Shown here piece by piece: positions 5,445 through 52,444 of a stretch of 64,000 nucleotides of DNA (position 1 is its first letter; every line of letters starts with the position of its first letter). A model generated the notes under the pieces. It was not told the DNA's origin and did no database searches. It was given only the letters and a program-made list of their open reading frames with translations. The stretch lies in assembly GCA_039683415.1 (NCBI GenBank), contig JBDKRL010000006.1, forward strand, positions 13,839 through 77,838. The letters are read 5' to 3'. Both the position numbers and the translations under genes were made by a program. This DNA comes from Clostridiaceae bacterium. Its GTDB lineage: Bacteria > Bacillota > Clostridia > Christensenellales > CAG-138.

Positions 5445-6017
5445 TTATTGACGCAAATCCAGCCAGAGCATATGAACGGAACCTTGCGCGGCGATTTCGC
5501 GGTATCCCGCGTCCAGATACATTTGCAGCGTACCGCGGTAGCGCTTCTGCGGGGTTTCCTTGCTTTCGAAAGGCACGGCGATCATCGCGTCGTACCCGTT
5601 CGCGGTAAAATCTTCGATGGCGCGGCAAAGCAGCGCGCGGGCAACGCCTTTCTGACGCCAATCCGGATGGACGACATAGCAGATCGTGCAGCCGACTTTT
5701 TTCTCATCGCAGTAAGGTTGGATGTCGGGATAGATGCGCAGGAATTTTTTTACGTCGTTTGCGCTGCACCAGCCGACGCACCGCGCTCCTTCGAAAGCGA
5801 GATAGCCCGTCATCTCGCCGGATTGAATCGCGGCAACCGATTCGGCGCGGTTTTGTTCGCCCGTGCGCACCATCCAGTCTTCCAGCGGGCAGTCCAGATA
5901 GTAGGAGCGGCAGTAGCAGCTGGCCCAATGCGGTGTTGCCGAAAAATCGACGCTGCCGAGGAACTCCGCAAACGTTTCGGCAAGATCGGGAGAAAGCGGT
6001 TTGATTTCGTAAGGCAT
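5445..6017 (-). CDS. GNAT family N-acetyltransferase
   Basis: 190 aa. YVVHPDWRQKGVARALLCRAIEDF is an acetyl-CoA binding loop. Confidence 0.75.
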   Translation of the reverse strand: MPYEIKPLSPDLAETFAEFLGSVDFSATPHWASCYCRSYYLDCPLEDWMVRTGEQNRAESVAAIQSGEMTGYLAFEGARCVGWCSANDVKKFLRIYPDIQPYCDEKKVGCTICYVVHPDWRQKGVARALLCRAIEDFTANGYDAMIAVPFESKETPQKRYRGTLQMYLDAGYREIAAQGSVHMLWLDLRQ

Positions 6018-6135
6018 GTTGGACTCCTTTCCGGTTTTTGACGTCCGCCGGGGGAAGAAGGCTGCAATTCGTCATGTGCTTTATTATACCATCAGATCAG
6101 ACAAAACATGAATCTGGTTTTTGGAACGAATCTTC

Positions 6136-6186
6136 TTTACATCGGCCCGTTTGCGTGCTATATTGAACGTGACCGAAACGGTCACG
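6136..6186 (+). promoter_or_regulatory. sigma-A type promoter (TTTACA-17-TATATT) plus 8-3-8 palindromic operator
   Basis: TTTACA 6136-6141 and TATATT 6159-6164. The perfect inverted repeat CGTGACCG-AAA-CGGTCACG at 6168-6186 sits over the expected transcription start, 22 nt before the tetR ATG. Confidence 0.6.
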
Positions 6187-6208
6187 AATAGTACGGGAGC
6201 TGGAATCA

Positions 6209-6871
6209 ATGAGTTTTGACGCGCTGGAACTGGAAAAGCAATCGGAAATCCTCAATGCCGCCTGCGAGGTGTTCGCCAAACATGGCTATCAGAAAGCTTC
6301 CATGATGGATATTGCGCAAGCGGCCGGGGTTTCCAAAAGTGTGCTGTTCAAGTACTTTTCGACCAAGGAAAACCTCTACCTCAAAATCTTCCGGCTGGCA
6401 ACGGACGGCATCCTCGCGGCGGACGCAACCGCGCGCGCGTCCTGTCCGGACGGCGCGGACTTGTTTGAGCGGATGCGGAACTCGGTGCGGGAGCGTCTCA
6501 AGCTGTTTGAACGATACCCTTGGGTATTCCGTTTTTCCTACACGGCGGCGTTCGATCCCGATCCATTCGCCCAAGCGCTGGTGCGGGAGGAAATGGCGAA
6601 AACTTACGCGGACTACGAAGCGCGAAAAAAGCGTACGGGTGAGCAAACACTGCCGGAGTACCGCCCGCTGCGAAAGGATATTCCGCCGGATGCTGCGCGG
6701 CAGATGATCCTCTGGGTTTCGCAGGGATTTTTGGAAGAAAAACTGCACGCGGGAACGACGGAACCGAATGCGCTGCGGCAGGAGTTTGAGCACTGGATCG
6801 ACTTACTGGAACTGCTGCTGCGCGAACAACAAACCGAATCCGCAACCGGAGAACAGGAGAAAATGAAATGA
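6209..6871 (+). CDS. TetR/AcrR family transcriptional regulator
   Basis: N-terminal HTH: ILNAACEVFAKHGYQKASMMDIAQAAGVSKSVLFKYF. Confidence 0.85.
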   Translation: MSFDALELEKQSEILNAACEVFAKHGYQKASMMDIAQAAGVSKSVLFKYFSTKENLYLKIFRLATDGILAADATARASCPDGADLFERMRNSVRERLKLFERYPWVFRFSYTAAFDPDPFAQALVREEMAKTYADYEARKKRTGEQTLPEYRPLRKDIPPDAARQMILWVSQGFLEEKLHAGTTEPNALRQEFEHWIDLLELLLREQQTESATGEQEKMK

Positions 6872-7809
6872 ACGAAACAGAATTTACAGTCAAACAAGGC
6901 GGTATCGAGGGAACCGAGGGAGTTCAACATCGGGTGCTCTCCGTTTGCGGCGGGCCTGTCTCGGTCTACGAGGCGGGGGATCCGCAAAATCCCGCCGTCG
7001 TGCTGCTGCACGGGGCGATGTATGACGAGGCACGCTTCTGCTGGGATCAGCTGTTTCCCGAGCTGGCAAAGCAATACCACGTGTTCGCTGTCGATACCCC
7101 GCGGCATGGGGCGTCCCGCCCCTGGAGCGGGACGCTCGAGCGCGCGCGCCTGCTGGACATTCTGGAAGAAACGTTTGCGCAGATTCTGCCGAAGCGGTTC
7201 AGCATCGTCGGCCTTTCCATGGGCGGCGGGCTTGCGATTGAATACGCCGCGCTCCACCCCGAACAGGTTGTTTCGATGGCGCTGTTCGAGCCGGGCGGAC
7301 TGGGCGAAACGGTCACTGGCGAGCTGTTTACGTATCTCTATATCCATACGCCGGGGATGCTGCGCCTGCTCAGTAAGAAATACGTCAAACTGGATCGCGG
7401 CAAAATAGAAAAGCTCCTTCGCTCCATCTACACAGGCGGGTCTGTTCCCACCGACCCGGAGCGGCTGACTGCGATTCTCGAGGACGAAATTCGCGGCAAG
7501 TTCGACAGCGGCGAAAACGATATGGACGACTGGCAGCTCAGCGCAATCGCTCCGTTCCGGCTGAAATGGAACCTGCTTGGCACGATTCCGCTGCTCCGCT
7601 GCCCGACGCTCTGGCTCAGGGGGAACAAGAGCATCCTTGTCAAGCAAAGCGAAATGGAACGCGCGGTCCTGCTCGCGCAAAAAAGCGGCGCAAGCGCGGA
7701 GCTCCTGGTGGTACCGAACGCGGGGCACATCCTGCCGCTGGAACGACCGGAGACGGCGAACCGGGCGGTGCTGGAATTTCTCGGCAGGACAGTGAAACAG
7801 GCAGACTAG
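6868..7809 (+). CDS. alpha/beta hydrolase
   Basis: ATGA overlap with the tetR stop. Motifs: VVLLHGA, GLSMGG nucleophile elbow, C-terminal NAGH. Confidence 0.85.
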   Translation: MNETEFTVKQGGIEGTEGVQHRVLSVCGGPVSVYEAGDPQNPAVVLLHGAMYDEARFCWDQLFPELAKQYHVFAVDTPRHGASRPWSGTLERARLLDILEETFAQILPKRFSIVGLSMGGGLAIEYAALHPEQVVSMALFEPGGLGETVTGELFTYLYIHTPGMLRLLSKKYVKLDRGKIEKLLRSIYTGGSVPTDPERLTAILEDEIRGKFDSGENDMDDWQLSAIAPFRLKWNLLGTIPLLRCPTLWLRGNKSILVKQSEMERAVLLAQKSGASAELLVVPNAGHILPLERPETANRAVLEFLGRTVKQAD

Positions 7810-7822
7810 CGAGATAAGAAAA

Positions 7823-7846
7823 CCCGCCGCGATAAAAAACGGCGGG
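7823..7846 (-). terminator. intrinsic terminator for the minus-strand flavodoxin/FMN-binding operon
   Basis: CCCGCCG/CGGCGGG 7-bp stem. The minus-strand reading is followed by TTTTCTTATC; the plus strand has no T-run. Confidence 0.55.
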
Positions 7847-7940
7847 GGAACGCGCTTCGACCGGCAAAGCGGGATTCGTTTGTTGAGCGGAACCAGGGGT
7901 TAAGCATATTGCCATATGAGGATTATCGCAAAAATACAAA

Positions 7941-8348
7941 TCAAGGCGTCAACGCATCTTCCAGGGCGGCAAAGAACGCGTTACTGTCCGCGGTGGCGCC
8001 GGAAACGGCGTCCACATCCGTCGACTGCGCGGCAAGCACACGGTCAACCAGCGTTTGAATCGTTTCCTCCTTGGCAAACACCTGCGGTTTGGTCTGCCGG
8101 ATGGTTATCATTTCGTGATCCTGAACCGTAACTTCCACGGTATTGCTCCAGCGAAACCCGCTGTAGCGCCCTGTGTATGTTCCGTCGCTGACGGAAAGCG
8201 GGGTTAAGCCGCCGTGCGCAAGGTTCAGGGTTTTTTCCTTGCCCACCAACACAAACGCCGCCATACACCCCGCCAACACGACAAGCGTAATGAGGACACC
8301 GAGCAGCACCCGAAGAAGGGTTTTTAGAACATTTTTCAGTTTGTTCAC
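7941..8348 (-). CDS. FMN-binding domain protein, membrane-anchored, predicted extracytoplasmic
   Basis: Track ORF 7941..8564 trimmed to an in-frame GTG at 8346-8348, which overlaps the upstream TGA (GTGA). One TM helix, then a domain ending in DAVSGATADS (the SGAT flavinylation-type motif of FMN_bind domains). Confidence 0.7.
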   Translation of the reverse strand: MNKLKNVLKTLLRVLLGVLITLVVLAGCMAAFVLVGKEKTLNLAHGGLTPLSVSDGTYTGRYSGFRWSNTVEVTVQDHEMITIRQTKPQVFAKEETIQTLVDRVLAAQSTDVDAVSGATADSNAFFAALEDALTP

Positions 8349-21167: not shown

Positions 21168-21631
21168 ATTTGCTACCTTGCATCGCGCTAATAAGCGCTG
21201 CTTTTCTTACGCACGGATTAAGCGCTCTCTATCCCCGCCGCGCGTTCCACATGGCGCGGGCAGGCCGGATTACTGTTTTGAGTGCGCTTCTGACTATTTT
21301 CGCCATTGGTACTATCATAGCGCAAATTGATCTATTTAGGAACAGGTTCGGGTCTGCGGTGAACTTGCGCGGGGTACATACAATATGAAAATACGGCGTG
21401 CGAAACGACCCACCGCAATTCATTTCCGAGCCGGTCTTTTCAAAATTGCCAAAGTGATTTTTTGATATACCATTTTGGTATGATCCTAAATGGTGAATCG
21501 TTCGTCTGCATTTAGGAGCTGCGGGCAGACCGGAGACGGCCGTTGATAGACAATAATCGAATAAAACAACGGTTGTGCGGACAAACAAACAGAAAACACC
21601 GATCAATATTGTAAAAATCAAACATATTTAA

Positions 21632-21660
21632 TTGACTTGCGTTTTACAGAGTGCTATTCT
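21632..21660 (+). promoter_or_regulatory. candidate promoter of the peptide ABC operon (TTGACT-17-TATTCT)
   Basis: TTGACT 21632-21637 and TATTCT 21655-21660. An alternative TATAAT lies at 21678-21683. Confidence 0.4.
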
Positions 21661-21741
21661 AAATAAAATATATTGTATATAATTCAACTGACGAGAAGCC
21701 CTAAATCGAGTCCTTTGGATGTATACAAATGGAAGGAGAAA

Positions 21742-23442
21742 ATGGTAATGAAACTGTTCAAACGCTTTGGCGCGATCCTGCTGGTTCTCGCCATGGTAAC
21801 CAGTCTGGCGGCGTGCGGCCAAACGGCAGCCCCCGCGACTGAGGAAACAACTGCCGCAGCGGCAGAAGAACCCGCGGAAGCCGCAGCAACAGAGCCCAAA
21901 ATCGTCAATGTTATGATCGAAGTGGAGGTTGAAAGCCTCGATCCTCAGGTTGCAACAGACGGTACGAGCTTTGAGGTAATCGCGGACATCACGGACGGCC
22001 TCAAGCAGATGGACGCCAACGGCGGCGTTGTCGATGCGCTTTGCTCAGCCGAGACCATCAGCGAAGACGGCCTGACCTACACCTTCACGATTCGTGACGA
22101 TGCGGTTTGGAGCAACGGCGATCCCGTGACGGCGGCAGACTTCGTGTTCGGCTGGCAGCGCGCGGTGGATCCGGCACTGGCAAGCGAGTATTCCTATATG
22201 TTCAGCGACATTGGCCAGGTGAAGAACGCTGCTGCCATCATCGCGGGCACGCTGCCTGTGACCGATCTTGGCGTCACCGCCATCGATGAGAAGACCCTGC
22301 AGGTGCAGCTGGAAGTTCCGGTTGCGTACTTCAATCAGATTCTCTACTTCCCGACCTTCTATCCGGTCAATCAGAAGTTCTTCGAGGCCTGCGGCGACAG
22401 CTATGCCACCAGCCCCGAAACGCTGCTCAGCAACGGCGCGTTTGTGATGACGAGCTATGAGCCCGCGGCCACGAACTTCACGCTGGAAAAGAATCCTACC
22501 TATTATGATGCGGCGCGCATCCAGATTGACGGCCTGAACTATCAGGTCATCAAAGAGAGCCAGCAGGCGCTTCTGAGCTATCAGAGCGGCGACCTTGACA
22601 CCATCCTCGTCTCCGGCGACCAGGTCGATCAGGTCAAGGATGACCCGGCGTTCAAGAGCGTCGGCGCAGGCTATCTGTGGTATATTTCGCCCAACATTGC
22701 GCAGTATCCGGAACTGGCGAACCTCAATTTGCGCCTTGCGATGACCTTTGCGCTGGATCGCCAGACCATTGTGGACAGCGTCGTGAAAGACGGCTCCACG
22801 GCGACCTTTACGGCGGTTCCGCCGCAGTTTGCAACCGGCCCTGCGGGGGATGACTTCTCCGCGGATCAGACCGAGTTTGCGGACGTCTGCGCGTATGACC
22901 TTGCCAAGGCAACGGAATATTACGAAGCTGCCAAGGCCGAACTGGGCACCGAGACATTCACCTTTGAGATGGTTCTGGACGACACCGAGATTCAGCAGAA
23001 CGTCGCCGCCGTCATCAAGGAAATGCTGGAGAGCGCCCTGCCCGGCATGACCATCAACCTCAAAGTGGAACCCAAGAAACAGCGCGTTCAGGACCTGCAG
23101 GACGGCAACTACTGCATCGGCCTGACCCGTTGGGGCCCGGACTACGCCGACCCGATGACCTACCTTGGTATGTGGGTTACCGGCAACAGCAACAACTACG
23201 GTCTCTGGAGCGATGCGGACTATGATGCTCTGATTGCGGAATGCACCACCGGCAGCCTCGCACAGGATGAGACGGGGCGTTGGGCTGCGCTCAAGAGCGC
23301 GGAGAAGATTGCCATGGAACAGGCGGTCATCTTCCCGCTGTATACGCAGTGCAACGCGACCTTGATCAGCCCGAACGTTACGGGCATCGAGTTCCACCCC
23401 GTCGCTCTGAACCGCGTTTTCAAGAACACAGTCAAGAACTGA
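21742..23442 (+). CDS. ABC transporter substrate-binding lipoprotein, family 5 (peptide/nickel, Opp/Dpp type)
   Basis: Track ORF trimmed to MVMKLFKRFGAILLVLAMVTSLAACG (GGAAGGAG RBS, lipobox). Followed by two permeases and two ATPases. Confidence 0.9.
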   Translation: MVMKLFKRFGAILLVLAMVTSLAACGQTAAPATEETTAAAAEEPAEAAATEPKIVNVMIEVEVESLDPQVATDGTSFEVIADITDGLKQMDANGGVVDALCSAETISEDGLTYTFTIRDDAVWSNGDPVTAADFVFGWQRAVDPALASEYSYMFSDIGQVKNAAAIIAGTLPVTDLGVTAIDEKTLQVQLEVPVAYFNQILYFPTFYPVNQKFFEACGDSYATSPETLLSNGAFVMTSYEPAATNFTLEKNPTYYDAARIQIDGLNYQVIKESQQALLSYQSGDLDTILVSGDQVDQVKDDPAFKSVGAGYLWYISPNIAQYPELANLNLRLAMTFALDRQTIVDSVVKDGSTATFTAVPPQFATGPAGDDFSADQTEFADVCAYDLAKATEYYEAAKAELGTETFTFEMVLDDTEIQQNVAAVIKEMLESALPGMTINLKVEPKKQRVQDLQDGNYCIGLTRWGPDYADPMTYLGMWVTGNSNNYGLWSDADYDALIAECTTGSLAQDETGRWAALKSAEKIAMEQAVIFPLYTQCNATLISPNVTGIEFHPVALNRVFKNTVKN

Positions 23443-27949: not shown

Positions 27950-28579
27950 TTATTGGACGGAACCCATCAGCGCAAAGAAGGATTCGGGTTTGTGCGTCAA
28001 AAAGAGATTGTACCACGCGTCCAGCGTTTCTTCGGAAAACACGCCCAAAGCCCGCAGTACCTGCACGGAGAATTCAAGCGGGGCGACGCCCGCGGCGGTG
28101 ATCAGGTTCCCGTCGGTGACGGCGGGCTCGTAGGAATAATACGCCGCGCCCGCATAGCCGGGGCAGACCATCTGGAGATACTCCAAATCGTTACTCGTAT
28201 GCCGTCTCGAATCCAGCAATCCGGCCTTGGCAAGCCCCATGGTAGCGCCGCAGATTGCCGCGACCAGTACGCCTTGTTCCAAACACCGCTCGGCGAATGC
28301 TAAGACGGGCTGGTGCATGGATTCCAGCCAGGTGTCTCCGCCGGGCAGAAGCAAGGCTGCCGCATGTTCGATGATGCATTCGTCAATCGTGGTATCCGGC
28401 AATATTTTCAAGCCGCCCATGGTTGTTACCGGCGTCTTGTTCATCCCCACGGTTACGATTTTCAGCGGGGCTAAGCCCTTTTTGAAGTACCGTCCGGCAT
28501 TCAGTTCCGCGGTCAGGTAGCCAACTTCCCAGTCCGCCATCGTATCGAACACATAAAGGTACACGACATTGTTATTCAT
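27950..28579 (-). CDS. DJ-1/PfpI family (type 1 glutamine amidotransferase-like) protein
   Basis: Trimmed to MNNNVVYLYVF (GGAGG upstream). Contains LLLPGG and the nucleophile-elbow AAICGAT. Confidence 0.75.
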   Translation of the reverse strand: MNNNVVYLYVFDTMADWEVGYLTAELNAGRYFKKGLAPLKIVTVGMNKTPVTTMGGLKILPDTTIDECIIEHAAALLLPGGDTWLESMHQPVLAFAERCLEQGVLVAAICGATMGLAKAGLLDSRRHTSNDLEYLQMVCPGYAGAAYYSYEPAVTDGNLITAAGVAPLEFSVQVLRALGVFSEETLDAWYNLFLTHKPESFFALMGSVQ

Positions 28580-28684
28580 ACAAAATCCTCCGTCCATTTA
28601 CTGTACCGGGCAAATTTCCGCCGGTACGCAAGGTGTACCCTCATCATAAAACAGATTCACTGACATATACTGTCAGTGAACCCG

Positions 28685-29647
28685 TCAGGATCGATAATAT
28701 TCCGTTAATTCCAACGCAACCGCGGCAAGGCGTTTTTTTAAACTCTGCGGTTCGACGACCTGAACCGCTGTTCCATAGGATAAGAGAAAACTGGGCACAT
28801 AGGCGTGAACCGCTTGCTCGTCCAGCAGAAAGACGGCCTGATGATCCGTTCGCTCCTTCAGATGATGACCCAGGAACCAATGCAGGCACAAATCGTCCAG
28901 CGCCTCCGTCCTGCCTTGGAGTATGACCGGTACCATTTCAGCCTTGCCGTCGGAATCGGGCAGCAGGTTCTGCAGAAAAAACTCCCGTGTGGAGAATGCT
29001 TCCGGCCGCTGAAAGGTCGTTTGGGTGGGCGTAATCCGCAAAATCCGTTCCGCGCGGAAGCTTCGGATTTCGTTTCGGGTATGGCAGAATCCAACGGTAT
29101 ACCATTTGTTGTTCCAGTACAGGATTCCGTAAGGGTCGATTCGTCTTGCCTTGGGCTGTTCTTCGCGGCCGGTTCGGTACTCGATTTCCACGGAAGTTCC
29201 GTTTGCCGCGGCCTTTTCCAGCTCTACCAGCGTTTTGCTGACAGAAGGATCGATGTCCCGGCTGATCACGTCGAAACCGGCTAAATGGCGGTTGAGGATG
29301 CCTTCCTGTTCCTGAGTGGAATACATTCGCAGTTTTTTCGTCGCGCTGTCCAGCGATTCGCTGAACGGATATCCCGCCTCTTTGGCGAAGATCGCGGCGT
29401 GCAGCAACGATTTTTGCTCTTCCAGATCAAACACCAAGGGCGCGTGAATGAAGCTGCTCATTAAGTGATACCCGCCGTTTTGCCCCGCGTCGGAAACAAT
29501 CGGCACGCCGCTGGCACAGAGGGAATCGATATAGCGGTATACGGTTCGGATGCTGATTTCCAGCTTTTCCGCAATCTGCTTTGCGGTGATCTTCGCGCCC
29601 GCATTCAGCATCCATAGAATCGCCAGCATTTGATCGTTTTTTGCCAT
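28685..29647 (-). CDS. HTH plus WYL domain transcriptional regulator (YafY-like)
   Basis: N-terminal ITAKQIAEKLEISIRTVYRYIDSL HTH. Central part contains the WYL-like signature (YWNNKWYTVGFC). Confidence 0.8.
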   Translation of the reverse strand: MAKNDQMLAILWMLNAGAKITAKQIAEKLEISIRTVYRYIDSLCASGVPIVSDAGQNGGYHLMSSFIHAPLVFDLEEQKSLLHAAIFAKEAGYPFSESLDSATKKLRMYSTQEQEGILNRHLAGFDVISRDIDPSVSKTLVELEKAAANGTSVEIEYRTGREEQPKARRIDPYGILYWNNKWYTVGFCHTRNEIRSFRAERILRITPTQTTFQRPEAFSTREFFLQNLLPDSDGKAEMVPVILQGRTEALDDLCLHWFLGHHLKERTDHQAVFLLDEQAVHAYVPSFLLSYGTAVQVVEPQSLKKRLAAVALELTEYYRS

Positions 29648-29709
29648 GGATGCCTCCGTTCAGTCGTTTTCCACAGGAATGAAATCTGAGTTCTCCGGTT
29701 TGGCCTGCG

Positions 29710-30132
29710 TCAGGACTGCGGACTTGCAATCTCAAGGGCAAAATCAACTGCGTTTTTCAAATCCTTCGCGTTGGGATGAGGCAGCGAAACAAACAGGATG
29801 GCGCCCTTGCAGACGAACTCGTCTATCACTGGAATCCCTTTTTCTTCGAGGATTTTACGCAAGGCAGCCTGCCGCTGTTTGCCCGAAGCGCAGTTTGTGA
29901 TCAGCGCAGCGCGTTTGAGCGCGGGCGCTTCCATCGCGGTTACAAACGTCAACAGCTCCGGCATGCTGACCCCGCCGTAAATACCGCCAACGATAAACAG
30001 CAGTTCGATATCCGTTAAGTTCGGGTTTTCCGTAATGTTTTGCGCTTTCACTTCTAAAGCCGAACCGACTGCTTCCGCAAGTTTCTTTGAGTGCTGTGTT
30101 TTGGTCGCATATAAAACGGCAACCTTTTCCAT
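29710..30132 (-). CDS. flavodoxin family protein
   Basis: 140 aa. Contains MEKVAVLYATKTQHSKKLAE and FIVGGIYGG. Confidence 0.7.
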   Translation of the reverse strand: MEKVAVLYATKTQHSKKLAEAVGSALEVKAQNITENPNLTDIELLFIVGGIYGGVSMPELLTFVTAMEAPALKRAALITNCASGKQRQAALRKILEEKGIPVIDEFVCKGAILFVSLPHPNAKDLKNAVDFALEIASPQS

Positions 30133-30193: not shown

Positions 30194-30661
30194 TTATTCG
30201 CAGATTTCCATGATGATCGGCTGCGAACTCGTCAAATTTTCATCAGGCCCAAAGCCTTCTCTGATTTTCCAGAAGCGAAGTGTAAACGATAAAGAAAAAT
30301 CAGACCCCTCCGCTAATTCGCTTCCATCGTCAAACGAAGCAAGAATGACGAATCGCTCATGGGGGTAATTCTGCTCCAACTGCGCGCGCCAGCTTTTGAT
30401 GACACCGACTGTTTTGAGATAAACCTCTACAAGATTATCCTTAAGTGGAGTATCGATCCTTATCTCGTTTCCGTCCCATTCCAGCCAGGAAAGATCAGTG
30501 CTCTCCGGGATGTGTTGATCGAGATTCCAAAAATCGGACACCCCGTAGTATGTTCTTCCAAATGCGTCCGTCTTTTGCCAGATTAAGTATTCGTCATCAA
30601 CAGGAGCATCTTCGGTCGAAATCGCCCCGAACAAAACTATCGCACGTTCGTTCAGTATCAT
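30194..30661 (-). CDS. hypothetical protein
   Basis: Track ORF trimmed to MILNERAIV (GGGGA upstream). Lies in an AT-richer region and no family was recognised. Confidence 0.5.
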   Translation of the reverse strand: MILNERAIVLFGAISTEDAPVDDEYLIWQKTDAFGRTYYGVSDFWNLDQHIPESTDLSWLEWDGNEIRIDTPLKDNLVEVYLKTVGVIKSWRAQLEQNYPHERFVILASFDDGSELAEGSDFSLSFTLRFWKIREGFGPDENLTSSQPIIMEICE

Positions 30662-30771
30662 TGAATCGTTCCCCGCATAAAAGAATTCAAATAGGCACAT
30701 ATTTATTAGAGAAATATAAAGTACGACATATGCTATATCTTGGTAGTTGCGAGAATTTGCAGAAGCAGTTA

Positions 30772-31023
30772 CTATTTTTCAAGAATTGAAGAAATTAAGT
30801 AAATAATCAGCATCAAAATAAACAAACCTACCGCCACGTAAGTTTTTTGCATATCCTGCTTCTGTTCAAGCTCTTTATTTTTTCGCTTTTCTTCTTGCTT
30901 GATTTGGTACCTTGTTTTCTTAGCAGGTTTCTTTAAGTTGTAATCTAGGCTCTTCTCTACCATGCCCTCGACATCGGTTTCGATGCTTGCCTCTTTTTTC
31001 AAAAAACTAAAGCTGAGTTTCAT
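30772..31023 (-). CDS. small tail-anchored membrane protein, hypothetical
   Basis: Trimmed to MKLSFSFLKK (GGGAGA RBS). Lys/Glu-rich region, then one C-terminal TM helix (YVAVGLFILMLIIYLISSIL). Confidence 0.45.
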   Translation of the reverse strand: MKLSFSFLKKEASIETDVEGMVEKSLDYNLKKPAKKTRYQIKQEEKRKNKELEQKQDMQKTYVAVGLFILMLIIYLISSILEK

Positions 31024-31163
31024 AATGTGTCTCCCTGCAATATTTTTTGCCCCAAAAGTCACTTAGAAAACATTAAAGGAACGCAATACATTCAAATCAA
31101 AAATGCAGACTGTTTGATTTCAGATTTTTAGGTGTCATACTCGACAAATTAAGTAATAATACT

Positions 31164-31240
31164 CTAATTACGTCGTTCCATCCTCACCACGCACTCCACA
31201 TGTCCCATCCACGCGAACCTGTCATCGCAACGTGCGGCGC
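31164..31240 (-). pseudogene. 3'-terminal relic of a RumA/RlmD-type 23S rRNA methyltransferase gene
   Basis: Minus-strand translation ...DDRFAWMGHVECVVRMERRN* parallels the C-terminus of the intact gene at 32698 (...VDMFPQTCHVECVVLMVRN*). There is no upstream body; it abuts the stop of the next gene. Confidence 0.6.
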
Positions 31241-31630
31241 TCACTTGAGCCGGATCAGCTCGCCTCGGCGCTTGACGATGTTTTTGTAATCCCACTGAAT
31301 TCGTTCCGCTTCATCGAGCCAGATGGCCAGCGAAACCGGATCGATCTCGGCAGCGTCGGTATACCGCGCTTCGGCTGCCTTGAATTTTCCAACGGGGGTC
31401 AAGCCCGCTTCGTCAAACGACTGCCCGCTCCAAAAAAGCAGCTGAACGTGCGTTTTGAGCTTGCAGTAGCCGACGATCGGGTTTCCGTCGATGAACCAGG
31501 CGGGGCTGCCGTGCCAAACTTTGCTCACGGCCTGCGGCAGGCGCTGTTCGATTGCATCCATCAATACCTGACAAATCTGCCGGTCGTGTTTAGTCAGCGA
31601 CGCGGTATAGCTTGCAATATCCGGATTCAT
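31241..31630 (-). CDS. DUF1801 (YdhG-like) domain protein
   Basis: Trimmed to MNPDIASY (AGGAGG upstream). Contains VWHGSPAWFIDGNPIVGY. Confidence 0.7.
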   Translation of the reverse strand: MNPDIASYTASLTKHDRQICQVLMDAIEQRLPQAVSKVWHGSPAWFIDGNPIVGYCKLKTHVQLLFWSGQSFDEAGLTPVGKFKAAEARYTDAAEIDPVSLAIWLDEAERIQWDYKNIVKRRGELIRLK

Positions 31631-31707
31631 GCTCAACCTCCTGTTCAACAGTTGTGGCCAAAAACCGAGGAGCTTACTTACGGAACTCGCTGTTGGGCAT
31701 TGGGTTT

Positions 31708-32145
31708 TTATTGTATTTTTTCCGCCAGAGTTTTTATACGCTCCAGAGCTTTGGGAAACCTGATTTGAAATATTTCTTCTTGTTCTTGCGGAACATCGGT
31801 TTTAACAACCAATGTAGTAACTCCATTTTTTTCGGTAAGAGAATAACTCTCCGTCCCGCCGGTCCATTCTTTTTCGCGTTCCTGCTGCCCGCTTTCTTTT
31901 GTGTCCGCACCATGCCTGAACAATACAAACGCATTCGGATTCAGCTTCTCGACCAGATCGGTCACGCCGTAACCATTTACGGATGATATGAACTGGATTT
32001 CGTTTCCTTCCTTCATAACTCCCTGCATATAGGTGCCTTCATCAAGGATACTTGCCCAGTCACGGAAGGTTATATCTTCCCAAAGAGTTGTCCAGACTCT
32101 TTCTGTTGAAGCGTTTATTTCGATTGAGAATTGCAGTTTCTTCAT
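31708..32145 (-). CDS. SRPBCC / AHSA1-like domain protein
   Basis: MKKLQFSIEINASTERVWTTLWEDITFRDW is a typical Aha1/SRPBCC N-terminus. Confidence 0.7.
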   Translation of the reverse strand: MKKLQFSIEINASTERVWTTLWEDITFRDWASILDEGTYMQGVMKEGNEIQFISSVNGYGVTDLVEKLNPNAFVLFRHGADTKESGQQEREKEWTGGTESYSLTEKNGVTTLVVKTDVPQEQEEIFQIRFPKALERIKTLAEKIQ

Positions 32146-32214
32146 ATTTTCCTCCTCAATATAAAATGTTTTACAGATTGAGAAAGGGCTTGAAAACGGA
32201 AAAAAACCGTACAG

Positions 32215-32670
32215 TTACTTGAAATAGTACATCAGATTGAGGCAGCTCGGGCAGTTGTCGTCGATATAGCCGGTGTCCTGAAATTCCGCCTTTTCATACA
32301 TCCGAAGGGCGGGGGTGTCCGACTTGTGAACGCAGACCTCGACGCAGGCATATTTCCCTTCCTGCTGCAGCATCGCCAGAATCAGCGACAGCGCTTGACA
32401 GCCGTAACCCTTATGCTGGAATTGCCGGTCAATCATGAACTGCTGCAAATCGTAGCAGGCGGGTTCTTCGTCCAAGTCTCTGACCAACGCAACGCCGATC
32501 ATCGTTTGATCGTCGGCAATGCCGATGACCCTTGCGTTGGAAGCGCGGTAAACATATCCTCTGGCGAGAATGCCGACGGAGCTGTCGAGAAAAGCCCGCT
32601 GGTTTTCCTCGACGCTGAGGCGCGCGACATCCTGCCAGTTGTCTTCGGTTATGTCGGTTAGTCGAATCAT
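32215..32670 (-). CDS. GNAT family N-acetyltransferase (diamine/spermidine acetyltransferase-like)
   Basis: Contains MIRLTDITEDNWQDVARLSV and FMIDRQFQHKGYGCQAL. Confidence 0.8.
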   Translation of the reverse strand: MIRLTDITEDNWQDVARLSVEENQRAFLDSSVGILARGYVYRASNARVIGIADDQTMIGVALVRDLDEEPACYDLQQFMIDRQFQHKGYGCQALSLILAMLQQEGKYACVEVCVHKSDTPALRMYEKAEFQDTGYIDDNCPSCLNLMYYFK

Positions 32671-32697
32671 AAAAAATCCTTTTTTAAGCTTGAGTTA

Positions 32698-34056
32698 TCA
32701 GTTTCGTACCATCAGCACCACGCACTCCACGTGGCACGTCTGCGGGAACATGTCCACCGGCTGGACGGCGGAAAGCGAAAAGCCTTTGGCGGCGAGGATT
32801 TTGCAGTCCCGCGCGAGGGTGGCGGGGTTGCAGGAAACGTAGACCACGCGGTTTGCGCCGCTATCGGCAATGGCTTCCAGCGCGGCGGGTTCGCAGCCTT
32901 TGCGCGGGGGGTCGAGCACGATGGCGTCGATCTTCGTCTGCTCACCGACGAGGCGGGGGAGGACGTCCTCCACATTGCCGCAGAGAAACGTTGCGTTGGA
33001 AATATGGTTGGCAACGGCGTTTTGCTTGGCGTCCGCAATCGCGGGTTCCACCTGCTCGATGCCGATCACCTGACGGCAGTGATCCGCCAGAAACAGCGAA
33101 ATCGTGCCGACGCCGCAGTACGCGTCCACGACCGTTTCTTCCGGCTGGGGGTCGAGGAACGCGGCTGCCGTTTCGTATAAAACGCCCGTCTGCACACGAT
33201 TGACCTGCAGAAAGCTCTGCGGGCTGACCGAAAAGCGCTTGTCCCCGATGGTTTCCGTGAGCGTCGGCCTGCCGGAAAGCAGCGTAAAGCGCTCGCCGAA
33301 CACGACGTTGGTATCCCTGGGGTTTTCGTTGTGCCAAACGCTGTCGCAGCGGTCGAGATAGGCCAGCAGTTCGTCGGTTCGCTTGAGCGCGCCGCGCGTA
33401 ACGACGACGACCATCAGTTCGCCGTCCGCCGTGGTGCGGGCAACGACATTGCGGAGCTGGCCTTTGCCGGTTTCCTCGTCATAGACCGGCACGCCGCAGT
33501 CGTTCGCCCAGGCGGCGACTTTACGCGCGGACTCCACAATCTGCTCGTCCTGAATCGGGCAGTCGGCAAACGGAATCAGCCGGTGGCTGCGCTCGGCAAA
33601 AAAGCCGAACACCACGGCGCCGCCCATCGTGCCGAACGGGAAACTCCCTTTATTGCGGTAGCGAATGGGTTCGTCCATGCCGATAATCGGGCGCATGGGC
33701 ACGGAAGCAAAGCCGCCGAGGCGGGTGAGCGCGTCGGCAACCCACTGCTGCTTTTGCGCAAGCTGCGCGGGGTACGAAAGGTGCCATAGATCGCACCCGC
33801 CGCACTGCGCGAACACGTCGCATCTGGGGGACACGCGGTCTTTGGAAGGCGTGAGGATTTCCAGCAGCTTGGCAATCGCGTAGGAAGGCGTTACTTTAAT
33901 GATGTGCGCGCGGACGGTTTCACCCGCAAGCGCGCCAAGCACGAACACGGCATATCCTTCCACGCGGGCAACGCCCTGACCTTCGTTGGAAAGCGCGGTG
34001 ATGTTCAGGGTGAGGTCGTCGTTCTTTTTAACCGGGGGACGGGGAGTTGGGGCCAT
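32698..34056 (-). CDS. rlmD: 23S rRNA (uracil-C5)-methyltransferase, RumA/RlmD family
   Basis: Trimmed to MAPTPRPPVKK. TRAM-like N-terminus, Cys cluster (C..QCGGCDLWH), SAM motif DAYCGVGT, C-terminal YVSCNPATLARD...HVECVV. Confidence 0.85.
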   Translation of the reverse strand: MAPTPRPPVKKNDDLTLNITALSNEGQGVARVEGYAVFVLGALAGETVRAHIIKVTPSYAIAKLLEILTPSKDRVSPRCDVFAQCGGCDLWHLSYPAQLAQKQQWVADALTRLGGFASVPMRPIIGMDEPIRYRNKGSFPFGTMGGAVVFGFFAERSHRLIPFADCPIQDEQIVESARKVAAWANDCGVPVYDEETGKGQLRNVVARTTADGELMVVVVTRGALKRTDELLAYLDRCDSVWHNENPRDTNVVFGERFTLLSGRPTLTETIGDKRFSVSPQSFLQVNRVQTGVLYETAAAFLDPQPEETVVDAYCGVGTISLFLADHCRQVIGIEQVEPAIADAKQNAVANHISNATFLCGNVEDVLPRLVGEQTKIDAIVLDPPRKGCEPAALEAIADSGANRVVYVSCNPATLARDCKILAAKGFSLSAVQPVDMFPQTCHVECVVLMVRN

Positions 34057-34116
34057 AATGGTTATCCTTTCCGCGCGGAACGGTTCCGGGCGAGGCAAAT
34101 TTAAGATGAGAATCAG

Positions 34117-37531
<3,415 letters not shown>

Positions 37532-37539
<8 letters not shown>

Positions 37540-51991: not shown

Positions 51992-52444
51992 TTGAAAACA
52001 ACGCAGCGCGTGGAAGAGCTGGTCAAGGGCGTCGTAGAGTCGCTCGGATTTGAGCTCTGCGACGTGGAGTACCAAAAAGAATACGGCAGCTGGGTGCTGA
52101 CGCTCTATATTGACCGCGCGGAAGGCGTCACCATTGACGACTGCGAGCGCGTGAGCAAAGCCGTGGATCCCGTCCTCGACGAGGCGGATCCGATCGAGCA
52201 GGCGTATTACCTCTCCGTTTCGTCGCTGGGGCTCGACCACCCGCTCAAAAAGGACGCTGATTTTGCGCGAAACCTCAACAAACGCATCGAAGTAAAGCTC
52301 TTTGCGCCGCAGAACGGCAAAAAGGAATTCGTCTGCGAACTGGTTTCGTTTACAGAGACAACGGTGACGGTTCGCCTCAATGGCGAAGAACTGACGCTGG
52401 AACGCAAGAGCATTGCGCTGGCGCGTCCGGAACTGGTCTTTTAG
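51992..52444 (+). CDS. rimP: ribosome maturation factor RimP
   Basis: TTG start after GGAGGA. Contains VEELVKGVVESLGFELCDVEY and LSVSSLGLDHPL. Confidence 0.9.
   Translation: MKTTQRVEELVKGVVESLGFELCDVEYQKEYGSWVLTLYIDRAEGVTIDDCERVSKAVDPVLDEADPIEQAYYLSVSSLGLDHPLKKDADFARNLNKRIEVKLFAPQNGKKEFVCELVSFTETTVTVRLNGEELTLERKSIALARPELVF

Follow-up and report, generated by a model that had tools for sequence, protein, structure and literature searches.

Displaced copies of the rlmD gene end mark an accretion hotspot of small genes in an uncultured Clostridia clade

The 3' end of rumA, the gene also called rlmD, is an established integration hotspot, as described in Dehalobacter (PMC11578063). In streptococci, enterococci and Roseburia, integrative and conjugative elements (ICEs) with serine integrases have their insertion point behind the GA of a GAG, which is codon 11 counted from the rumA stop. 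An alternative tail for the gene (ECVALLVKA and others) often comes with the element, the original 11 codons are left at the far end, and tandem insertion is possible (PMC4120198). The rumA-specific class consists of single serine integrases, and CTn5 of C. difficile is also inserted in rumA (PMC4701971). The ICEs and prophages of Firmicutes with this target, the GA of a GAG about 11 codons from the stop, include the vanG elements, ICE-r, ICESp2905, the Tn5252/Tn1549-type ICE_rumA and CTn5 (PMC4120198, PMC4701971). In this study we analyzed a stretch of 64,000 nucleotides from a Clostridiaceae bacterium (contig JBDKRL010000006.1, positions 13,839 to 77,838; hereafter, the window), in which an intact rlmD is followed, beyond three small genes, by a short remnant of an rlmD 3' end, which we call the relic. 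The original prediction, made from the letters of the window, had named rumA-type genes as hotspots for ICEs and phages in streptococci, and this was borne out by the literature (PMC4701971, PMC4120198, PMC11578063).

The locus in the window is a member of this known rumA/rlmD 3'-end hotspot, since the target, the codon and the presence of both a displaced and a replacement tail match. The rumA ICEs likewise show replacement tails fused to rumA, a short original tail at the far end, tandem occupancy and a recognised hotspot. They differ in size and content. That is, the rumA ICEs are 16-100 kb long and carry an integrase at the right end together with conjugation or phage genes, whereas the units in the window and its clade are 0.5-2 kb long and hold 1-3 small promoterless genes and no recombinase. 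In many relics of the clade, 30-172 nt on the left side of the GA are still rlmD-like, and the host belongs to an uncultured environmental Clostridia clade. We found no genes for conjugation or mobilisation and no phage module in the window; the cargo consists of a GNAT gene, an SRPBCC-type gene, a DUF1801 gene and two unknown open reading frames (ORFs). Because the defining recombinase and transfer module are absent, the units of the window are not ICEs, integrative and mobilizable elements or prophages.

Other accretion systems resemble the locus in part. The staphylococcal cassette chromosome (SCC, including SCCmec) resides at orfX (rlmH) in staphylococci, uses large serine recombinases, forms tandem arrays and includes recombinase-less pseudo-SCC units. 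There, too, the 3' end of an rRNA methyltransferase gene is targeted and direct repeats hold the gene end. The target, however, is rlmH/orfX and not rlmD, and the recombinases of our clade, which fit CcrB models best, reached 97-131 bits on them against a cut-off of 900; the window has no ccr genes and much smaller cargo. The cis-mobilizable elements (CIMEs) at the att sites of ICESt1 and ICESt3 and the ssrA islands of Dehalococcoides are att-flanked units without their own recombinase, which accrete in tandem at the 3' end of one gene and are in principle open to mobilisation in trans. Their targets are fda and ssrA, and in the ICESt elements the recombinase is of the tyrosine type. By analogy, the rlmD units seem to behave like accreted, recombinase-less, att-flanked units of the CIME and pseudo-SCC kind, and they might likewise be mobilised in trans.

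The likeness to integron arrays is superficial. Both have co-oriented, close-set and apparently promoterless small genes at a recurring site downstream of an expressed platform, and in the rlmD arrays the GNAT, DUF1801 and metallo-beta-lactamase-fold (MBL) genes, a gene for a 116-aa ORF and a TIR/8xMP gene recur at different positions. But the window has no IntI, attI or Pc, the platform is rlmD, and the recurring site is a gene-end fragment and no attC hairpin; the single-strand DNA of the relics folded no better than shuffled sequences (z-scores -1.0 to +0.9; more exactly, -0.96 to +0.86).

The rlmD gene of the window lies on the minus strand at 32698..34056, counted from its ATG, and is intact. 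It encodes a rumA-type 23S rRNA U1939 methyltransferase with TRAM and tRNA_U5-meth_tr domains, which scored 428 bits on TIGR00479 (cut-off 184) and ends in ...VDMFPQTCHVECVVLMVRN before the stop; an exact-protein look-up with either start codon gave no match. The gene is preceded by dnaE (34117-37539), and the dnaE-rlmD synteny was present in all relatives whose loci reach upstream of rlmD. The relic occupies 31164..31240 of the minus strand. It is a decayed, non-coding remnant of 77 bases, corresponding to the last ~25 codons of rlmD. The minus-strand ORF that contains it (31164..31295) ends in ...CDDRFAWMGHVECVVRMERRN, also given as ...DDRFAWMGHVECVVRMERRN, followed by the stop. It consists of a left arm in two pieces (~31225-31241, which is like positions -172..-156 of rlmD, and 31197-31224, which reads DDRFAWMGHV), a GAG codon (31194-31196) and a tail of nine codons past the GAG, CVVRMERRN-stop (31164-31193).

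The C-terminal ends of the relic and the methyltransferase, as given in the original prediction, were found with exact coordinates, and so was the 15-nt block that it had noticed in direct orientation in both. This 15-mer, CACCACGCACTCCAC, with the codons GTG GAG TGC GTG GTG, occurs in the window at 31185-31199 and 32716-32730 only, even when 2 mismatches are allowed, against a chance expectation of 0.12 matches. Moreover, it extends to a 51-nt direct repeat with 78% identity (31173-31223 versus 32704-32754). On the side of rlmD this repeat is the recombination-prone core of the gene (32704..32754, minus strand; codons DMFPQTCHVECVVLM), in which the GAG, the Glu codon of HVE, stands at 32725-32727. 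The repeat is centred on GTG GAG TGC, the GA of which is the published rumA crossover.

We considered whether the likeness of the relic to rlmD could be due to chance, to codon constraint on the HVECV motif or to an assembly artefact. The protein-profile score of the relic by itself was weak (9.6 bits), which speaks for chance. With a DNA profile (nhmmer) built from the final 185 nt of rlmD in 49 relatives, however, the relic was found at 31167-31239 of the minus strand with E = 0.0075, as the second-best match in the window. The relic at the syntenic position of the related locus L001 reached 30 bits with the protein profile (E = 7e-7), and syntenic relics are present in independent assemblies. 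Codon constraint, which the prediction had named as a possible sole cause of the identity, is rejected because no more than 3 of the 170 other loci retrieved up to that point have the exact 15-mer and because the relic is non-coding. An explanation by chance, constraint or artefact is therefore refuted, and 31164-31240 is a real recombination scar, that is, a dead and displaced copy of the rlmD 3' end. It probably has no function of its own at present; a predicted terminator was not found in it.

Relics of this kind recur among the relatives. The comparison loci, labelled L001-L176, came from a genome scan and a metagenome scan that yielded loci of Christensenellaceae-like and Clostridia metagenome-assembled genomes (MAGs), and they include viral contigs from IMG/VR (L083-L090). 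Among the 36 related loci having at least 2 kb downstream of rlmD, the DNA profile detected 17 rlmD 3' relics in 13 loci. All 17 lie downstream of rlmD and on its strand, and none was found in 316 kb of upstream flank; further relics are present in L171-176. While the dnaE-rlmD synteny is conserved among the related loci, the content downstream is highly variable. The closest relatives, L001, L101 and L134, have rlmD, then the SRPBCC-type gene (73-75% amino acid identity) and then DUF1801. The relic of the window has its counterpart immediately behind DUF1801 in three relatives. In L001 this relic comes right after DUF1801 and is far better preserved than the copy in the window (RDAFPQTCHVECVVRMARES, then the stop), and in L134 the order is rlmD, SRPBCC, DUF1801, a decayed relic and flavodoxin. 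The rate of decay differs between lineages. In the window, L001, L134, L020, L103 and L011 alike, the DUF1801 stop is joined to rlmD position ~-172, and as compared to the relics of L020 and L103, those of L001, L134 and the window have lost ~100 nt internally. Identity profiles of rlmD against L056, L001, L002, L101 and L134 have no discontinuity at -170 inside the gene.

The age of this junction, which is shared across lineages of ~75% RlmD identity, could be taken to mean that one ancient duplication seeded the relics. The prediction had offered such a reading as its second alternative, namely a decayed rumA paralogue, or tandem duplicate, overwritten by cargo. But no second intact rlmD was found within 10 kb of rlmD in any of about 55 related loci, a locus may hold up to three or four relics (L009, L020), and no relic extends beyond the last ~172 nt of rlmD. 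The decayed-paralogue reading is thus largely refuted, and we regard it as highly improbable.

Several arrays in the relatives deserve mention in their own right. L009 has three relics at 5650-8295, with a single-gene unit for a TIR protein with 8xMP (octameric membrane protein) between two of them, and the same gene stands directly after rlmD in L021. The array of L172 (3706-6511) consists of GNAT, a relic, GrpB, an MBL-fold gene and Arr-ms (rifampin ADP-ribosyltransferase), and is the same in L173 and L174; resistance-type genes therefore ride in rlmD arrays. Two of the loci, L006 and L011, both come from OY762290.1 (at 3.64 Mb and 1.06 Mb). That is, this 'closed' MAG chromosome has two complete dnaE-rlmD loci, ~75% identical to the window, which could reflect a genuine large duplication or else a chimera of the assembly.

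The relic tails proved to be the working tails of other genomes, which is a further point against a decayed paralogue. In L056, the RlmD of which is 91% identical to that of the window, the intact rlmD ends in CVVRMER.., which is the tail of the window relic (47 nt, 85%). Both a replacement tail on rlmD and a displaced tail downstream are thus present in the window. L056 is without all three cargo genes, and instead has an AT-rich 335-aa ORF, a decayed relic and the flavodoxin/WYL/DJ-1 genes. The working tail of the window (..LMVRN-stop, in general M.RN(G)-stop), together with its spacer (TAAAAAAGGAT.TTT.ATG) and GNAT, comes after full-length rlmD in L172-175. In L171 and L176 this tail is instead the end of a relic, ahead of the spacer and GNAT, and GNAT abuts flavodoxin. 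Past HVE.VV the working tails are hypervariable, and even closely related loci differ there in both sequence and length. A two-gene block separates L007 from L006, L019 and L009, and the homology to L006 ends 7 nt past the GA; we read the L007 relic as its displaced native tail, since it resembles the working tails of L006 and L004. It is clear from these comparisons that the tails switch, from genome to genome, between the working end of rlmD and a relic.

The original prediction had offered, as the first of two alternatives, the footprint of a site-specific insertion that restores the end of rlmD and brackets three cargo genes. It named the contents of the interval correctly (GNAT, DUF1801 and SRPBCC, the latter by a weak match only). 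The footprint itself is supported by the recurrent relics, the interchangeable tails, the GAG codon and the locus L008 described below, but the three cargo genes are not one insertion and belong to at least two or three modules. The homology of rlmD to L001 ends at 32714, and that to L134, L101, L002 and L056 at 32709-32710; these breaks, the one with L001 included, are 12-17 nt past the GA. Homology to L001 is absent over the tail and GNAT (32713-32156), and the GNAT module is absent from L001, L101 and L134. The homology to these three loci resumes at the ribosome-binding region of SRPBCC, continues across DUF1801 and reaches the relic (in L001, as far as 31178); it is lost again over orf96 and returns at orf168/flavodoxin. 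From these breaks and the shared DUF1801/relic junction, we conclude that the window, as read from its sequence, holds at least three pieces.

The first piece is the tail that now completes rlmD together with GNAT. This module (32173..32709, minus strand) comprises the final rlmD codons (..VRN-stop), a spacer of 27 nt, the GNAT gene (32215-32670) and a short hairpin. The second piece is an older unit of SRPBCC, DUF1801 and the rlmD-like left arm. Its first gene, the AT-rich SRPBCC-type gene (31708..32145, minus strand), matches Pfam AHSA1/Polyketide_cyc2 weakly (E ~ 0.006); the DUF1801 gene (31241..31648, minus strand; Pfam PF08818) has a probable ATG at 31630, and its stop codon abuts the rlmD-like sequence. 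The third piece is the relic tail CVVRMERRN-stop with the AT-rich block to its left (30194..31062, minus strand), which consists of orf96 (30772-31062) and orf168 (30194-30700) and is variable among relatives. Neither ORF matched anything in Pfam, NCBIfam or PADLOC, and the other unknown cargo was without a match in PADLOC or NCBIfam. The orf96 product is lysine-rich with one predicted hydrophobic C-terminal segment, and the gene was seen in the window only; orf168 recurs in L001 and L020 beside a 296-aa ORF of unknown function. The orf96/orf168 block is absent from L134, L056 and L002. The prediction had judged the interval and the stretch beyond the relic to be AT-rich by eye. Against a mean GC content of 56.4% for the window, this holds for SRPBCC (42.9%), orf96 (35.7%) and orf168 (45.4%), but GNAT (54.2%) and DUF1801 (55.9%) are ordinary.

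Beyond the block lies the conserved right flank (27950..30132, minus strand), with flavodoxin (29710-30132), a WYL regulator (28685-29647) and DJ-1/PfpI (27950-28597); it is syntenic in L001, L002, L056, L134, L171 and L176. The cargo between rlmD and the relic is co-oriented with rlmD with spacers of 27-69 nt, and the minus strand from rlmD to the relic contains no terminator-like site. Judging from this arrangement, read-through from rlmD is plausible, and the cargo is probably transcribed in this way. In the relatives the cargo includes GNAT, an MBL-fold gene, the Arr rifampin ADP-ribosyltransferase, the TIR/8xMP gene and an Erm-like methylase.

Some observations on the window are recorded here. 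A perfect 15-nt inverted repeat on the palindrome TTCCGCGCGGAA stands at 29045-29059 and 34069-34083, 5 kb apart, with the first copy inside the WYL gene and the second immediately preceding the start of rlmD; it is probably due to chance. The only other strongly AT-rich spot (~40% GC) is at 21300-21750, around a short ORF and an intergenic stretch. No tRNA was found in the window, this spot included.

The interval between rlmD and flavodoxin is therefore a hotspot of accretion in the clade, made up of co-oriented, close-set small genes with rlmD-tail relics between them: relics recur in relatives, tails interchange, the repeat is centred on the known crossover codon, and one relative, L008, has a serine recombinase between rlmD and its displaced native tail. 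The homology breaks lie 7-17 nt past the GA; the position of the crossover is resolved to ~10 nt, because the core is conserved. In L008, rlmD is followed by a glyoxalase gene, a small ORF, a serine recombinase (308 aa, with Resolvase and Recombinase domains), the P arm AATAGCCTAAAAATTTCACGTGGAG, and then the native tail and flank. In L013 the homologous tail and flank stand at rlmD itself, and the same P arm also occurs after a related recombinase on the IMG/VR contig L083.

As the mechanism, we favor, with a probability of roughly 0.55, that the relic is a scar from the recombination of DNA carrying its own replacement rlmD tail into the ...DMFPQTCHVE|CVV... segment, including exchange at the GAG. 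The incoming DNA would recombine into the rlmD core and displace the old tail downstream. The exchange would take place at the GA of the GAG (Glu) or no more than ~10 nt from it, the site of the rumA-specific large serine recombinases, and the serine recombinase may have been supplied in trans or since lost. If exchanges sit at the GAG and the enzyme acts in trans or was lost, the segment between rlmD and a relic could be excised as a loop and integrated again in the form [tail - gene(s) - left arm]. The units of the window appear to be fixed at present.

Several points weigh against this mechanism. The window yielded neither a serine recombinase nor a strict tyrosine-recombinase motif, in agreement with the prediction, which had noted the lack of an integrase there. 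Within the small relic-bounded units of the relic-bearing loci no recombinase was found either, with L008 as the sole exception. The left arms of the relics comprise 95-172 nt of rlmD-like sequence with several start points; such long and varied arms exceed the need of a serine-integrase half-site and are in better accord with homologous exchange. A test for concerted evolution, in which we asked whether a relic is closest to the rlmD of its own genome, gave a mixed result, and the relics of L007, L009 (relic 2), L020 (relic 1) and L096 are nearer to the rlmD of other genomes. The prediction had proposed a search for an empty site in relatives; a fully empty site, with rlmD directly followed by flavodoxin, was not found among them, although L056, L134 and L007 show near-empty states. 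Finally, since GNAT is adjacent to flavodoxin in L171 and L176, the gene order of the window cannot be taken as simple accretion with the newest unit nearest to rlmD.

The lack of a recombinase in the window and its units, the long and varied left arms, and the relics nearer to foreign rlmD genes make RecA-dependent homologous recombination a serious rival, by which array segments would pass between related genomes or undergo Campbell-style loop-out and re-insertion. In such exchange the rlmD 3' end and its relics would serve as portable homology with no dedicated recombinase. It is also in line with this that the tail imported by L007 carries 22 nt of flank that is native in another lineage (L019, L009). 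But most relics keep 30-50 nt at 80-90% identity and are thus a poor RecA substrate, the breaks cluster near the GAG of the serine integrases (PMC4120198), L008 shows a recombinase-borne insertion at the rlmD site within the clade, and the first duplication cannot arise by homologous exchange. We consider exchange without any dedicated recombinase to be possible but clearly the less probable of these two explanations; RecA exchange may well have acted alongside a recombinase.

Identity blocks that run to the end of a gene are typical of tyrosine-integrase islands. Two unrelated relic classes, one after DUF1801 and the other after an alpha/beta hydrolase (L003, L030), begin at rlmD -170 to -172. 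This would be expected if islands with an attP in which up to about 170 nt of the rlmD 3' end are copied, as in tRNA-targeting islands, had inserted here. Other relics start at -146, -95, -84 and -60, however. The strict box II motif of tyrosine recombinases was found neither in the window nor in L001-L037, and no such family is among the 25 commonest Pfam families listed from a broad scan of 80 downstream ORFs, among which a single integrase could therefore be hidden. Insertion by tyrosine-integrase islands is accordingly very unlikely.

With regard to the serine recombinases that recombination at the GAG would need, the clade and its viral contigs offer some candidates. Paired serine recombinases of 521 aa, accompanied by a 949-aa Ppl-type defence gene (PHP and ATPase), lie 1-5 kb downstream of rlmD in convergent orientation (L013, 12113-18623; also L025, L098 and L091), and a recombinase remnant is present in L018 (12537-12806). 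We considered these pairs as the responsible enzymes, but the element in L013 is not at the GAG, since the native rlmD tail and flank are intact and its attachment site must lie elsewhere, and this also counts against recombination by such an enzyme. A faint tblastn match to a serine recombinase at 52082-52189 of the window was spurious, being antisense to rimP.

The viral contigs L083-L090 carry a module of a serine recombinase, a 153-aa ORF and a second serine recombinase, followed by variable cargo, for example GIY-YIG and HEPN genes and one for an Erm-like rRNA adenine methylase. Behind this cargo stands a mimic of the rumA tail, with two 'VDMFPQT' motifs, a spacer of 54 nt and CHVETVVLMSRVDK before the stop (for example, L084 15825-15983, L090 16988-17133, and L083 12746-12860 and 14908-14943). 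In L083 a small second recombinase is nested between two such mimics. The second relic of L020 has the same split architecture as the viral mimics, which are oriented opposite to what L013 would require. Close relatives of the DUF1801 and GNAT genes were not found on the IMG/VR contigs.

A bolder proposal is that the rlmD 3' end is a platform for cassette acquisition, comparable to an integron or an SCC array but with a gene end as its base. Here small promoterless [replacement tail - gene(s) - left arm] modules would be taken up, rearranged and passed from genome to genome at the HVE/GAG core through serine recombinases that act in trans, each giving RlmD a new tail and having its cargo expressed by read-through. 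We regard this as doubtful, though conceivable.

With these findings the rumA/rlmD hotspot, known from pathogens such as streptococci, enterococci and C. difficile, is extended to a Christensenellaceae-like clade of uncultured environmental bacteria. They also show what the hotspot looks like after long use: tiny accessory genes, no integrases, scars of gene tails between them, and a C-terminal tail of RlmD that is swapped among close relatives. For annotation, the relics are reliable markers of island boundaries, and they explain the hypervariable C-terminus of RlmD and the variable genes downstream of it. If mobilisation in trans is true, the locus would represent a simple cassette system based on a gene end, with resistance- and defence-type genes as its cargo.

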